From: Escherichia coli
GTDB lineage: Bacteria > Pseudomonadota > Gammaproteobacteria > Enterobacterales > Enterobacteriaceae
Length of the DNA: 64,000 nt
Strand: one strand, 5' to 3'
Assembly: GCF_024298765.1 (NCBI RefSeq)
Contig: NZ_CP101211.1
Positions 24,001 to 30,000 of the stretch are shown one piece after another. Position 1 is the first letter of the stretch; each line of letters opens with the position of its first letter. Made by a program: the position numbers.

Positions 24001-27000
24001 GAAGTTCGCCGCACTCAAGCGCGAGCAGGCCCTGCCCCTGGCGATCAACCCGAACAGCGACCAGTACCTGGAAGAGCGTTTGCAGCTGCTGGACGAGCAG
24101 TTGGCCACCGTCACCCGCCTGGCCAAGGACAACGAGCTGCCCGATGCCATCCTCACCGAGTCAGGGCTGAAAATCACCCCGCTGGATGCGGCGGTGCCGG
24201 ATCGGGCGCAGGCGCTGATCGACCAAACCAGCCAGTTACTGCCGCGCATCAAGATCACCGAACTGCTGATGGACGTGGACGACTGGACGGGCTTCAGCCG
24301 CCACTTCACCCACTTGAAGGACGGGGCCGAGGCCAAAGACAGGACGTTGCTGCTGTCCGCAATCCTCGGTGATGCGATCAACCTCGGGCTGACCAAGATG
24401 GCCGAGTCGAGCCCCGGCCTGACCTACGCCAAGCTGTCCTGGCTGCAAGCCTGGCACATCCGCGACGAAACCTATTCGGCGGCCTTGGCCGAGCTGGTCA
24501 ACCACCAGTATCGCCACGCCTTTGCCGCCCACTGGGGCGACGGCACGACCTCATCCTCCGATGGCCAGCGCTTCCGCGCGGGTGGCCGGGGCGAGAGCAC
24601 CGGGCACGTCAACCCGAAGTACGGTAGCGAGCCGGGACGGCTGTTCTATACCCATATCTCCGACCAGTACGCGCCGTTCAGCACCCGCGTGGTGAATGTC
24701 GGCGTCCGCGATTCCACCTATGTGCTCGACGGCCTGCTGTACCACGAGTCCGACCTGCGGATCGAGGAGCACTACACCGACACGGCCGGCTTCACCGATC
24801 ACGTCTTTGCCCTGATGCACCTGCTAGGCTTCCGCTTCGCGCCGCGCATCCGCGACCTCGGCGAAACCAAGCTGTACGTGCCGCAGGGCGTGCAAGCCTA
24901 CCCGACGTTGCGCCCGCTGATCGGCGGCACCCTGAACATCAAGCACGTGCGTGCCCACTGGGACGACATCCTGCGCCTGGCCAGCTCGATCAAGCAGGGC
25001 ACCGTCACCGCCTCGCTGATGCTGCGCAAGCTCGGCAGCTACCCGCGCCAGAACGGACTGGCCGTGGCCCTGCGCGAGCTGGGCCGGATCGAGCGCACGC
25101 TGTTCATCCTGGACTGGCTGCAAAGTGTTGAACTGCGCCGCCGCGTGCATGCCGGCCTGAACAAAGGTGAGGCGCGCAACTCGCTGGCCAGGGCGGTGTT
25201 CTTCAACCGCCTTGGGGAAATCAGGGATCGGAGCTTCGAGCAGCAGCGCTACCGGGCCAGCGGCCTCAACCTGGTGACGGCGGCTATCGTGCTGTGGAAC
25301 ACGGTGTACCTGGAACGCGCCACCCAGGGGTTGGTCGAGGCCGGCAAGCCGGTGGACGGCGAGCTGCTGCAATTCCTGTCGCCGCTGGGCTGGGAGCACA
25401 TCAACCTAACCGGCGATTACGTCTGGCGGCAGAGCCGCAGACTGGAAGACGGGAAGTTTCGGCCCTTACGGATGCCCGGAAAACCTTAGCGTACGATTTT
25501 TTCCGAATTCTGCGGGCTCCCCTTTAAGATTTTGGCAAGCAGTAGCGTCCTCTGGTTTACCCATGAACATGGTAATACGGGAAAAACCATACCAACTTAT
25601 GGTCGCTTTGATTGCTTTATATACGGCCATCCCTGTTGTTACAATAGTAATTTTATCTGGTCAGCAATCGCATAAGTTGGAACTAATTGCTGTGCATTTC
25701 ATTACATTTATCACGATGGTGTTTGTTTTGCGTCGTAAGATGGGGAAACGTTGGCTGGATTTATTTGAAGAAAAATTAGCCATTTATAAACCTAATGATA
25801 AACTCGCGCTTAGCGAATTACACGAAAGCATACGTGAGAAAAATGGGCTAGACTTGCAGGATCTACAAGATTGGTACTGGAAAGAGAAGATGACATATGC
25901 GTATCACAAAGAACATAAAACAACCATAAGCTATCAAAAATTCAAGTAGCATTTTAAAATGTCAGGGGAGGGCTATTGTGATTTATTAAGTCGGCAAGGT
26001 TATTAGGTAGGGGTGTTCAATATGATAAATTCTTCGAGTGTGGTTATTTCAAGAGTTGTTCTGGTCCTTTGAGATAGCTAATTATCATTACAGACTTTAT
26101 CGAAAGGTATGAATTATGAACATTACCGACAAAGAACTTAGCTCAAATACAGTGAGTCAGTATGGATGGAACTTAGGAGAGTTCAATCACTCAACGCCTT
26201 TTACATCTCATTTTATTTATATTACCGACTATCATAAAGATAATACATGGATGATTTCACTTTCGCAGGAGGATTTTAATACGACCAAAATTTCAACATC
26301 GTTAAGTCTAGATGCCTGTGTGTCCATGCTCGGAAAGATACTAAAAAAAATGTCTAACAAAATCGGTATCTCACAAACGGAAGAATCTGAATTCGCATTT
26401 CTTTTAACAAACTATATTAAACAAACTTTGACTTTTAGAGAATGGCAACGCAATGCTGAAGGAAATCAACGACTGCACTTTCTTATTAATATCTACGGTG
26501 CAAAAGAAGACGGTGGCGAAGTGGTTTTAAGACCATTTATTGTAAATCCTGATGAATTAATGCTTACTCCAGCGGATGTCGTTGAATTTAATTCGCAGGT
26601 TATCAAAGTTGATCGGCAGCGTCATCCTGAGTGGTTCCGTTAACAGGTCACAAGGGTTAAGAGCCTGAAAGGCTGCGATAGGGTATACGCAGCCTATTCT
26701 GTATAGCCGTCGCGTAATAATTGTTCTAAATGACTATCGACCGTTTCCTGATCACCAGGAATATATCGAGGCCATCCTGTTATATCGTTGGCGAGTTTCA
26801 CTATGTATGGATGAAACCCAAACTGTTCGGAAGTGATGTCAATATAATATTGCACTTCTTCGAAATTCAACTCACACCAATAATGGCCAAAGCCACCACA
26901 CTCTATAAATATACCGCCATCATCTGCACCGTTACCCCCACGGACAACAGCATCTAGACCTTTAGTTTTTGCTAAATAACACACAAGATAGCTTGCAAAA

Positions 27001-30000
27001 AGGCAAGTGCCTGCCGTCTTCTCTATGCCGCACTCCGTTAAAATTGAAAGTAGCTTTTCATGCGCCACTCTTGCAATGTCTGATACCAATTCCGGGGACA
27101 TGTTAGCTCCAGTGAAATTGTTAGATCGACTTAAACAGATAATAACTCAATATTTTCATGAAGTACTTGTGGGTTCTTAAACCAATAGCCGGAACCACAC
27201 ATCCAAGGTTCACCTGGGAAAACAAAACCTTCTTGAATAAGGTATTTGCGGAATAGGGGAGGCAGTACATTTTCAATTTTCAAAATGTAATTTTGTTCAT
27301 CTGCAATACATTTCAATTCTGCAAGAAGCGCTCTAAAAATGCCTGTGCCGGGCTCTTTAACTGAGATAGTTGAAACAACCATGACCGGATATCCCAGGAC
27401 CGAACACATGCCTGCTCTTGCCCGGATGTAGAGCTCCTCGAAATGGTGTAAGCCGTGTACATGAGAAGACCTTATGGGTATCTTACCATCTGATGCCTGC
27501 GTTATAAGGTCGGCGAAAACCTTTTTGATTTTCAGCAAATCTGCCTGAAAATTTTGATCGTTCAAAGGAAAATCAGATTGAGAATTTGTCATTACATATC
27601 TTATGTTTTAAAAACTTAACTTTGATAAAGCAAAGGAATACGCTGATCGTCATGTGATCCAAATTGAGCAATGAATTTTAATTCGGAACAGCTAAAGACA
27701 AAGCAGTAGGGTGCAATAATTCAGGATGTCGATACTATAAGAAGAATAGTGGTATGAATGTAGCAATTACCTCAATATGAGGGGGGCAACTGTTGATGCT
27801 GTACATACATACAGTATTTAACATAATCTTTGTTATATGTACTTATAAATCAATGACATAAGGTTTAAAGATCGTATGATCTACGCACTAGGTCATGGCT
27901 TGTAATGAGTGAAAAAAGGTTCAAGATTTTAGAGAAATGCTCCCAAGATCAACATGGCGGCATAAGTTTTCCAGCTTGACCAATCAATCGTGGAACCAAG
28001 CAACAGATAGAATGCCAGGCCTACCAGCCCCAGCTTTACTACTATCCCAATTAATATGGTAAAGATAGACTCATCGCGTTCGCCTTTAAGTAATTTACAA
28101 CGCGTAATTAGATCGTCTTTTTTCATGTAGAATCCCTTAGAGTTATTAAAGTCCTGCATTAGAAGTTGTTACCTGCCGAAGTTACCTCGTATGAGTTAAC
28201 TGTGGCTCCAAACATACAAAATATAAGCTGTGCCAATTGAAAGGATTAGAAAAGCACAGTTACTAATAAAATCTACTAATGCTTGTAGCTTCTTTAGTCT
28301 CACTATTGCTGGACCGTGTTCAGTAGAGGTACTACTCAGCCCTTTTGTTCTGGCACTCTCTGCTTTTCTGAAAAAATTGTAATGCAATCCTGACCGCAAG
28401 CAAAACCATGCCAAACCAGTCGTTATTACGATATTTATGTAGAAAGCATATTGAATCATTTGTTCAGTTTCGAAGCTTTCCATTGAAAACCCTTTGTTGA
28501 AATGTTGAATAAAATTATTTTTAGTAAATGTAAGCAATAAATAGAACGAATATTAATAGTGAAAGATGCAATGCCAACATCTGCTTATGATGCCTTATGA
28601 GGATTTCTTCCTTCGCATTCATTAAATCGTACATCTCATCAATATTTTTATTGCTGGTATATTCGAGACGTTCATCACGAAGTAATTTGAACTTTACCAA
28701 TACGACAAGTGATTTAATAATAAAGCTCGTAAGCATAACAGTTATAGACAAAAATAAAAAATAGGCCAAATTCATATATCACTCCATGGAGATTAATAGA
28801 AAAATTTATAATAAGTAATCTCATAGAGCATTACTTGAATCTTCTTCCCATACTAAGGACTCACCGAGAAATTTAGTTAAAGATGATTTGGCATACTGTG
28901 GTTCGGAAAAAAAACGTGGGAACCAGCCGTCAAAGCTTTGGGTACCATTGTGACGATTTTCAGGCGAGACTGATAAGCGGTACCCGTCTCCGTAAGGTGA
29001 AATGCTAAATGTGTATCCATCATCTGTCTTTGAGATCAGCGTTTTGCTTGTCATATGACTAATAGATACCGTTAACTCCTTTGGTGTTTGTATCACCGAA
29101 AGAAGAAACAATGCGCTTATGGCTGCAAAAATCCAGCAATATAATGATGCATCCATAAAACCAGCTACAACACTCGATCCCAAAAAAAACCAAAATAAAC
29201 TTATTAAGATTACTGAGTTTTCATTCATGTCTGTTCCTTGTTATTACTAATTATATTATGCTTTATAGTTGACCGTCAGACTACCCACGGGTTTTGACGA
29301 ACAAAGTCACGCACTCCATTTATACATGCTTTTGAGATGACTTCAAAATAAGGATGGTTTGATGGAATCATATTCCCGGTATTATCAAGAAGCATAATAG
29401 TCCCTAAAGACCGAACCAGTTGATATTCATTGAGCTTACGCTTTAGCAAAGTTTGCAATCTATAAATTGTCTCACCGGAACTGTTACCTTCGATACCTAC
29501 AACAGAGACCGTACAGTTCACTTCCTGATTATCAGATTGATAATCGAACCAGTAATTTTCGTTGTAATTTCCTTTTTGCGCATGCTCAATTTTGCCAGGC
29601 CATTTTACCCATAAAGAAGAGTTGTTTTTAGATCGTAAGATCTGCTTCAGCGTTTCCAATGGATTTTTTTCATCAACCTCAGACCAGGCCGAAATAAATT
29701 CTTTCTGCATTGCCTCAGGGTCTATAACGGCAATGAAATCAAATTCCTCTTTATTGATAGAGTTGGCTCGATCTTTGAGATAAAACAGACCGAGTTTATA
29801 TCCCTTTTCACTTTTCCAGTTTGCTCCCACAGGCTGATAGTCTGTATTTATAAACGGTTTGAAAGTGTGAGTGTCGGGAGAAAAAATTACTGAGGGTGCC
29901 AGCACCCGGCCTCGGTGTCGTATTGGATTTACATATATTTTTTCCCCGTCACATAACATTTCAATAATTGCTTTTGTCACAACTACTGAAATAGAAGGTC

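Follow-up and report, generated by a model that had tools for sequence, protein, structure and literature searches.

Introduction

The transglutaminase/papain-like enzymes of the Peptidase_CA clan, such as 2HLY, TglA, LapG/BTLCP, the deamidases SseI and PMT-C3 (Tox-PLDMTX) and the arylamine N-acetyltransferases (NATs), share a core in which the nucleophile lies at the N-terminus of a helix, while a His and an Asp residue lie on adjacent antiparallel strands. These proteins are effectors, periplasmic proteases or housekeeping enzymes. The GNAT superfamily includes AcrVA5, an anti-CRISPR acetyltransferase that inactivates Cas12a, as well as the toxins of the TacAT, AtaRT, KacAT and ItaRT modules, which have a ribbon-helix-helix (RHH) antitoxin. 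On plasmids, the leading-region anti-defence islands contain small uncharacterised genes mixed with orphan DNA methyltransferase, antirestriction and nuclease genes; oriT and umuCD often form their borders, and AcrVA5-like folds occur among their uncharacterised families (Samuel et al. 2024, PMC11541004). Here, I describe two adjacent genes, ORF-A and ORF-B (ORF, open reading frame), in a 64,000-nucleotide stretch of the Escherichia coli contig NZ_CP101211.1. This whole stretch is called the window.

An earlier note on the window had suggested that the two genes resemble a toxin-immunity or modification pair and that the second gene may encode a cysteine hydrolase or a papain-like protein. The analysis points to a partly different picture. 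With a probability of about one half, ORF-A and ORF-B are accessory genes of large conjugative plasmids of the MOBH type that are inherited independently of each other, and each encodes a separate cytoplasmic enzyme, a putative Cys-His-Asp enzyme for ORF-B and a putative GNAT for ORF-A. Each of the two proteins represents a new, uncharacterised sequence family in a well-known enzyme superfamily.

Gene structure and distribution

ORF-A (27131-27592, minus strand) and ORF-B (26694-27101, minus strand) start with ATG and encode proteins of 153 residues (WP_000185304.1) and 135 residues (WP_000074418.1), respectively. A 29-bp spacer, read from the sequence, separates the ORF-A stop codon from the ORF-B start codon (27102-27130, minus strand), and a Shine-Dalgarno GGAG (27110-27107, minus strand) lies 5 nt ahead of the ORF-B ATG. 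This arrangement, as well as the ORF-B motifs CLFASY (residues 33-38) and GHYWCE (residues 72-77), agrees with the earlier description. In the IncHI1/IncHI2 lineage, the two genes lie head-to-tail and are probably co-transcribed. The 336-bp AT-rich region upstream of ORF-A (27593-27928, minus strand) is the presumed promoter region of the unit. A stem-loop at 26667-26699 (minus strand), which overlaps the ORF-B stop codon and extends directly after it, is a putative terminator. It sits between convergent genes and has a GC-rich 8-bp stem and a 10-nt loop followed by UUUC. RNA folding gave -17.8 kcal/mol (z = -3.3), and none of 200 shuffled sequences was equally stable. The stem-loop is not listed by a simple terminator scan because its U tract is weak. 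A consensus scan for promoters and terminators returned a number of sites no better than that of shuffled sequence.

ORF-A and ORF-B are genuine genes rather than chance ORFs, since both are annotated as coding sequences in more than 1,000 plasmids, both have divergent homologues, and the ratio of nonsynonymous to synonymous substitution rates (dN/dS) is below 1 where measurable, namely for ORF-B. The public annotations of both accessions read 'hypothetical protein' only. Literature searches on the accessions, on the IncHI2 backbone and on leading regions with an acetyltransferase found no characterisation of either protein.

The locus in the window is IncHI2 plasmid backbone, with matches in 1,056 plasmid records. 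Most of these are conjugative plasmids with sizes of 200-350 kb, found in Escherichia, Salmonella and Enterobacter. The ORF-A family was found in 1,697 plasmids, and the ORF-B family in 2,090 plasmid records, 1,726 of which are conjugative. The plasmid groups carrying the latter include IncHI2 plasmids, Klebsiella IncFIB/IncHI1B plasmids and Pseudomonas megaplasmids. No member of the ORF-B family was found in 50,697 phage records.

ORF-B is a predicted Cys-His-Asp enzyme

An exhaustive profile search for ORF-B recovered 267 cluster representatives with an E-value of 1e-3 or lower, of which 175 reach 1e-10 or lower, while a word-indexed search found a few relatives only. Nearly all of the relatives are stand-alone proteins of 130-170 residues. 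ORF-B and the neighbouring genes scanned with it have no Pfam, NCBIfam, PADLOC or PHROGs match above threshold, and for ORF-B PDB sequence searches with the single sequence and with the profile found no relatives.

Conservation was measured on an alignment of 97 diverse members with a mean identity of about 30%. C33, G56, H73, W75 and F94 are invariant, and R14, G31, G55, G63, G72, Y74, D88, T90, D92, Q93, G95, Y113, G116 and Q118 are each kept in at least 90% of the sequences. Thus, the conserved Cys and His expected earlier are C33 and H73. The Cys of the GHYWCE motif (C76) varies and is Val in the consensus. A catalytic or metal-binding role of C76 was therefore rejected.

The structure of ORF-B was predicted with a pLDDT of 95.8, and the model has a transglutaminase/papain-like fold. 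C33 opens the helix of residues 33-46, H73 starts the strand of residues 73-80, and D88 ends the strand of residues 83-88. The model shows the alpha+beta core of the superfamily, with the Cys at a helix N-terminus packed on an antiparallel sheet. The putative triad is encoded at 27005-27003 (C33), 26885-26883 (H73) and 26840-26838 (D88) on the minus strand. The structure prediction that the earlier note had called for favours a catalytic-type fold, the family extends far beyond one plasmid, and the papain-like assignment gains support from the model and from the conserved C33, H73 and D88. The best structural neighbour is 2HLY (Atu2299), which belongs to PF09641, a papain-like family in which Ser replaces Cys (PMC10318531). 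ORF-B itself does not score above the gathering threshold for PF01841, PF15645 or PF09641, and no PF09641 match was found among the 97 relatives. Some of these relatives have sub-threshold Pfam matches (Tox-PLDMTX, 8/97; Transglut_core, 3/97; Transglut_core3, 3/97), with best E-values of 0.0018-0.03, and Tox-PLDMTX is the commonest. In summary, ORF-B is predicted to be an active Cys-His-Asp enzyme of a family without a Pfam model.

Purifying selection acts on ORF-B. The dN/dS value is 0.30 when the two IncHI2 lineages are compared and 0.21 for a pair of IncHI1-like copies. Only these two values are reliable, because dS has reached saturation in most comparisons of lineages. In a few fusion proteins (P0107, P0162, P0156, P0138 and P0166), the ORF-B domain is joined to an N-terminal domain with the class-I S-adenosylmethionine-dependent methyltransferase fold (two proteins), to an Rmf/CrpP-family domain, which scores above the NCBIfam cutoff, or to N- or C-terminal zinc ribbons.

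ORF-B may be a small cytoplasmic enzyme in which C33, at the helix N-terminus, would act as the nucleophile, with H73 and D88 on neighbouring strands. It would most likely modify or cleave a protein substrate by deamidation, transamidation, or peptide or isopeptide hydrolysis.

ORF-A is a putative acetyltransferase

No GNAT match in Pfam or NCBIfam was found for ORF-A or for any of 21 relatives scanned individually. There was also no PDB sequence match with the single sequence or the profile, and no PADLOC or PHROGs match above threshold. The structural model of ORF-A, built from five sequences (pLDDT 79.6, pTM 0.77), has the order helix, three-strand sheet, helix, strand, helix, strand. Two independent aligners matched it to GNAT structures. 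AcrVA5 is the top match and the nearest solved structure, and many other GNATs, including aminoglycoside acetyltransferases and the toxins TacT and AtaT, are also matched. The compact model contains the beta4-alpha3-beta5-alpha4 core in a mixed beta-sheet that is characteristic of the GNAT superfamily.

The motif A of GNATs is a pyrophosphate-binding loop, Q/R-x-x-G-x-G/A, between beta4 and alpha3. ORF-A has a motif-A-like loop, K79-E-P-G82-T-G84, between the fourth strand and the next helix. In the family, G84 and F86 are invariant, while G82 is replaced by N, A or Q in relatives. The conserved C-terminal block LKIENV...FRxxLxxEGFxFPG...GSGYW resembles GNAT motif B in the part up to FPG. When the ORF-A profile was aligned by hhalign with one Pfam-confirmed GNAT, the motifs were in register and the score was not significant. 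Because of the variable G82 and the non-significant profile alignment, the GNAT fold of ORF-A is regarded as likely, and its acyl-CoA-dependent acetyltransferase activity as putative. ORF-A would most likely use acyl-CoA as the donor in the acylation of a protein or a small-molecule amine.

ORF-A and ORF-B are separable

The adjacency of ORF-A and ORF-B was seen only in the IncHI2 type of the window and in IncHI1-like contigs. In the latter, the gap between the two genes is 33 bp, and the identity to the window proteins is 50% for ORF-A and 54-57% for ORF-B. In other settings, either gene is found with no copy of the other close by, or with one more than 100 kb away on the same plasmid. Using a 14-sequence alignment as the query, 27 ORF-B loci were found in reference genomes of Pseudomonas, Hydrogenophaga, Klebsiella grimontii, Achromobacter, Sphingomonas, rhizobia and a Saccharibacteria metagenome-assembled genome. 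An ORF-A relative was found within 5 kb in none of the 27, and no conserved neighbour of any kind was found across 29 loci. In pHCM1, a tricarballylate-utilisation operon occupies the place beside ORF-B where ORF-A would be expected.

R478-type IncHI2 plasmids have ORF-B and lack ORF-A. In a blastn comparison of the window with such a locus, the homology covers 26308-27144 at 96% identity and stops at 27144, a recombination breakpoint (no strand assigned) 14 nt inside the 3' end of ORF-A. The upstream DNA is different. The 29-bp spacer is retained at 96% identity, and in the annotation of pC16_001 a 'serine protease' gene lies upstream of ORF-B in the place of ORF-A. Three unrelated lineages have a gene annotated as a protease directly upstream of the ORF-B relative, namely this 'serine protease' (3872-4543 of locus L040), an Asp_protease_2 gene with a 4-nt overlap in metagenomic contigs (loci L050 and L051) and a Peptidase_S49 fragment (832-1221 of locus L052), which may be a coincidence.

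Among Enterobacter plasmids, ORF-A is found in 18 and ORF-B in 268; about 250 IncHI2 plasmids keep ORF-B without ORF-A. Klebsiella IncFIB/IncHI1B plasmids have both families, separated by more than 100 kb (ORF-B at about 58 kb and ORF-A at about 199 kb in NZ_CP097233.1; ORF-B at about 296 kb and ORF-A at about 142 kb in NZ_MW911667.1). In Citrobacter plasmids, the ORF-A homologue (2143-2568 of locus L037 and 5425-5850 of locus L042) is followed after 13 bp by a gene for a 141-residue protein (WP_016241518.1), and ORF-B lies about 2.9 kb beyond that gene. WP_016241518.1 was considered as an ORF-B relative and rejected, as hhalign against the ORF-B profile shows no relation; it contains an 'HLWIEY...IID' stretch nevertheless. 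The partner gene of ORF-A therefore differs between lineages. These results show that ORF-A and ORF-B are separable modules, neither of which needs the other nearby. Thus, the toxin-immunity layout proposed earlier, like a toxin-antitoxin pair, is not supported.

Genomic context

The two genes belong to a backbone block of 36-39% GC that adjoins a resistance region of 61-65% GC. In the order of the block, genes for proteins of 128 and 175 residues are followed by ORF-B, ORF-A, several small ORFs, a thermonuclease gene, a Dcm methyltransferase gene, DUF1173, a gene for a 401-residue protein and DUF4942. In the plasmid type of the window, the block is an island between two multidrug-resistance regions.

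ORF-B relatives lie in accessory arrays of small genes, most of them unannotated, interspersed with genes for DNA transactions and of an establishment type; DNA methyltransferase, antirestriction and nuclease genes are abundant there. The neighbours include Dcm, thermonuclease, DUF1173, DUF4942 and umuDC in IncHI plasmids, and HNH, a dnaC-like gene, Dcm with a restriction enzyme, DUF3846, RelE/ParE and another methyltransferase in Klebsiella plasmids. In Klebsiella pKpnJMC (4980-6154 of locus L038), the ORF-B homologue has a 4-nt overlap with a gene annotated as dnaC (IstB-like ATPase); genes for a Dcm methyltransferase and for a type II restriction endonuclease come next. In the Pseudomonas aeruginosa megaplasmid p2017-45-85 (484-530 kb), an ORF-B relative lies in an array of more than 40 kb with about 65 co-directional, mostly small and unannotated genes. 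The array includes an antirestriction gene, two PAPS-reductase-family genes, a methyltransferase gene, Arc repressors, yejK and DUF6283, and resembles a region of the establishment or anti-defence type, of very large size. Metagenomic contigs with ORF-B relatives carry a resolvase, three toxin-antitoxin pairs and H-NS, or DUF5983, SRAP and PLD. In the R478-type plasmid pC16_001, traD, the MobH relaxase and mobI are followed by trhH and traG and, further on, by DsbA, umuCD, insertion sequence (IS) elements and ORF-B.

Several other features of the window were observed. Positions 1-25500 form a multidrug-resistance region of 61-65% GC with floR, tet(A), ISVsa3 and others. The last element of this region is a Tn3-family transposase fragment (ORF 23669-25489), which borders on the AT-rich IncHI2 backbone at about 25.5 kb. 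Two uncharacterised plus-strand genes, 25563-25949 (128 residues) and 26116-26643 (175 residues), are convergent with ORF-B. The 175-residue protein has weak matches only (PADLOC candidate PDC-M24A, E 0.009; Pfam iSTAND, E 0.03); in the R478-type locus, the homology covers only a part of this gene, which is split there by an IS element. Upstream of ORF-A, small hydrophobic ORFs of 76, 113, 84 and 135 residues (27929-29228, minus strand) appear membrane-protein-like. None of them matches a family, and some are unannotated in public records. A syntenic block at 29276-38000, encoding a 326/312-residue protein, the thermonuclease, Dcm, a small ORF, DUF1173, a protein of about 400 residues and DUF4942, is common to IncHI2 and IncHI1-like plasmids and partly to Klebsiella IncFIB/IncHI1B plasmids (loci L004, L041 and L047-L049). 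This block appears to be an old accessory module in MOBH plasmids.

Discussion

The two proteins may help the plasmid to manipulate its host or to become established, for example by neutralising a factor of the recipient cell; this hypothesis comes from the genomic context. A more specific form of it would be that ORF-B founds a new class of plasmid host-takeover or anti-defence enzymes, a minimal papain/transglutaminase-like deamidase or protease hitting a defence, SOS or nucleoid factor of the recipient when large conjugative plasmids such as IncHI2, Klebsiella IncHI1B and Pseudomonas megaplasmids become established, while ORF-A, being AcrVA5-like, disables a different host defence protein. 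That form is possible but unlikely. It is doubtful to a similar degree that the two are cargo enzymes for small molecules, with ORF-A as a xenobiotic or antibiotic acetyltransferase and ORF-B as an amidase or NAT-like detoxifier, benefiting the host cell rather than plasmid transfer. Aminoglycoside acetyltransferases and other GNATs match ORF-A structurally, the structures matched by ORF-B include NATs and protein-glutaminases, and the host plasmids are resistance plasmids. However, both genes lie in the conserved AT-rich backbone outside the resistance modules, resistance-gene predictors flag nothing at the locus, and the neighbours are DNA-transaction genes (Dcm, nuclease, umuDC and DUF1173) rather than metabolic ones. 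In another reading, the two enzymes would cooperate, ORF-A acetylating and ORF-B acting on the same substrate or pathway, for example in acyl transfer or removal, as NATs have the fold and the triad spacing of ORF-B; the adjacency in IncHI plasmids would then be functional. This is quite unlikely, as the wider ORF-B family of Pseudomonas, Burkholderiales, Sphingomonas and rhizobia has no ORF-A relative within 5 kb, the Enterobacter IncHI2 plasmids mentioned above keep ORF-B alone, and the breakpoint at 27144 cuts ORF-A off within its 3' end.

The same distribution largely refutes a toxin-immunity or toxin-antitoxin pair, in which a GNAT toxin of the TacT/AtaT type or a papain-like toxin would be neutralised by its neighbour. 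Small co-directional genes 29 bp apart, an adjacency kept between IncHI1-like and IncHI2 plasmids, TacT and AtaT among the structural matches of ORF-A, and the weak Tox-PLDMTX matches of ORF-B relatives could all be read in its favour. Nevertheless, ORF-B stands alone at 27 of 27 genome loci, in pHCM1 and in R478-type IncHI2 plasmids, it has no conserved neighbour, the two genes are far apart in Klebsiella, and an unrelated gene follows ORF-A in Citrobacter. Moreover, neither an RHH or helix-turn-helix (HTH) antitoxin gene, nor a secretion or trafficking domain, nor a PADLOC match was found. Such a pair is thus highly improbable. That the ORFs are decaying or functionless passengers of the backbone is hardly credible. 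The lack of annotation and literature and the few database copies with a frameshift or truncation (P0014 and P0023) would fit decay, but it is contradicted by conservation and selection, namely the invariant C33 and H73 and the D88 kept in at least 90% of sequences at about 30% identity, the dN/dS of 0.2-0.3, and the intact copies in more than 2,000 plasmids. The reading of two independently inherited accessory enzymes is therefore preferred, and ORF-A and ORF-B should be studied as two separate functions.

Both genes belong to the conserved backbone of plasmid groups that spread mcr, extended-spectrum beta-lactamase and carbapenemase genes, namely IncHI2, Klebsiella IncFIB/IncHI1B and Pseudomonas megaplasmids. 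Hypothetical genes now have testable fold assignments, a putative triad (C33, H73 and D88) and a candidate cofactor, acyl-CoA. If either protein acts on recipient-cell proteins at establishment, it would represent a new enzymatic mechanism for plasmid anti-defence or host manipulation. Otherwise, ORF-A and ORF-B would be ordinary accessory enzymes.

Comparison with known systems

ORF-A is like the GNAT toxins of TacAT, AtaRT, KacAT and ItaRT in predicted fold, size and plasmid location, with structural matches at E 4e-3 to 4e-2. In contrast to these modules, ORF-A has no RHH gene upstream, its partner is downstream and enzyme-like, and the pairing with the partner is not conserved. The 336-bp gap upstream of ORF-A and the lack of RHH or HTH domains in the neighbours do not suit a type II toxin-antitoxin system, in which a small gene for a DNA-binding antitoxin adjoins the toxin gene, usually upstream and overlapping, and is conserved with it. 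Polymorphic toxins and effectors have a trafficking or secretion module and a tightly linked cognate immunity gene. ORF-B does not resemble them, being a bare 135-residue domain with no conserved neighbour in 29 loci and no ORF-A in 27 of 27.

AcrVA5 is structurally similar to the model of ORF-A, at 11-13% identity. It has about 92 residues, compared with 153 in ORF-A, and no sequence homology was found that would place ORF-A in the AcrVA5 family. Cas12a is not known to be typical of the enterobacterial hosts. The small uncharacterised genes of the ORF-B surroundings, mixed with methyltransferase, antirestriction and nuclease genes near umuCD, are reminiscent of the leading-region anti-defence islands (PMC11541004). 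A gene of such an island would lie next to oriT in the DNA that is transferred first and be oriented for early expression. In pC16_001, the block is near umuDC, and about 21 kb, including transfer genes, separate ORF-B from mobI and the relaxase gene. Neither family was matched to the families listed in that study, and it could not be shown that ORF-A is its AcrVA5-like Salmonella protein; its family 2405 is recognisable as a GNAT by sequence, unlike ORF-A.

The closest likeness of ORF-B is to the transglutaminase/papain-like enzymes of the Peptidase_CA clan. Its model has the same core, with the putative nucleophile at the helix N-terminus and the His and Asp on adjacent antiparallel strands. 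The spacing in the triad is 40 residues from Cys to His and 15 from His to Asp, and PMT-C3, SseI and NATs have a similar spacing. ORF-B differs from these relatives in lacking any significant Pfam, NCBIfam or PDB sequence match to them and in consisting of only 135 residues without an accessory, secretion or targeting domain. It also has motifs of its own (TxGxC, RGGDGxxDGG, GHYW, DITxDQFG and YxPGxQ) and, unlike the effectors, periplasmic proteases and housekeeping enzymes of the clan, it is plasmid-borne.

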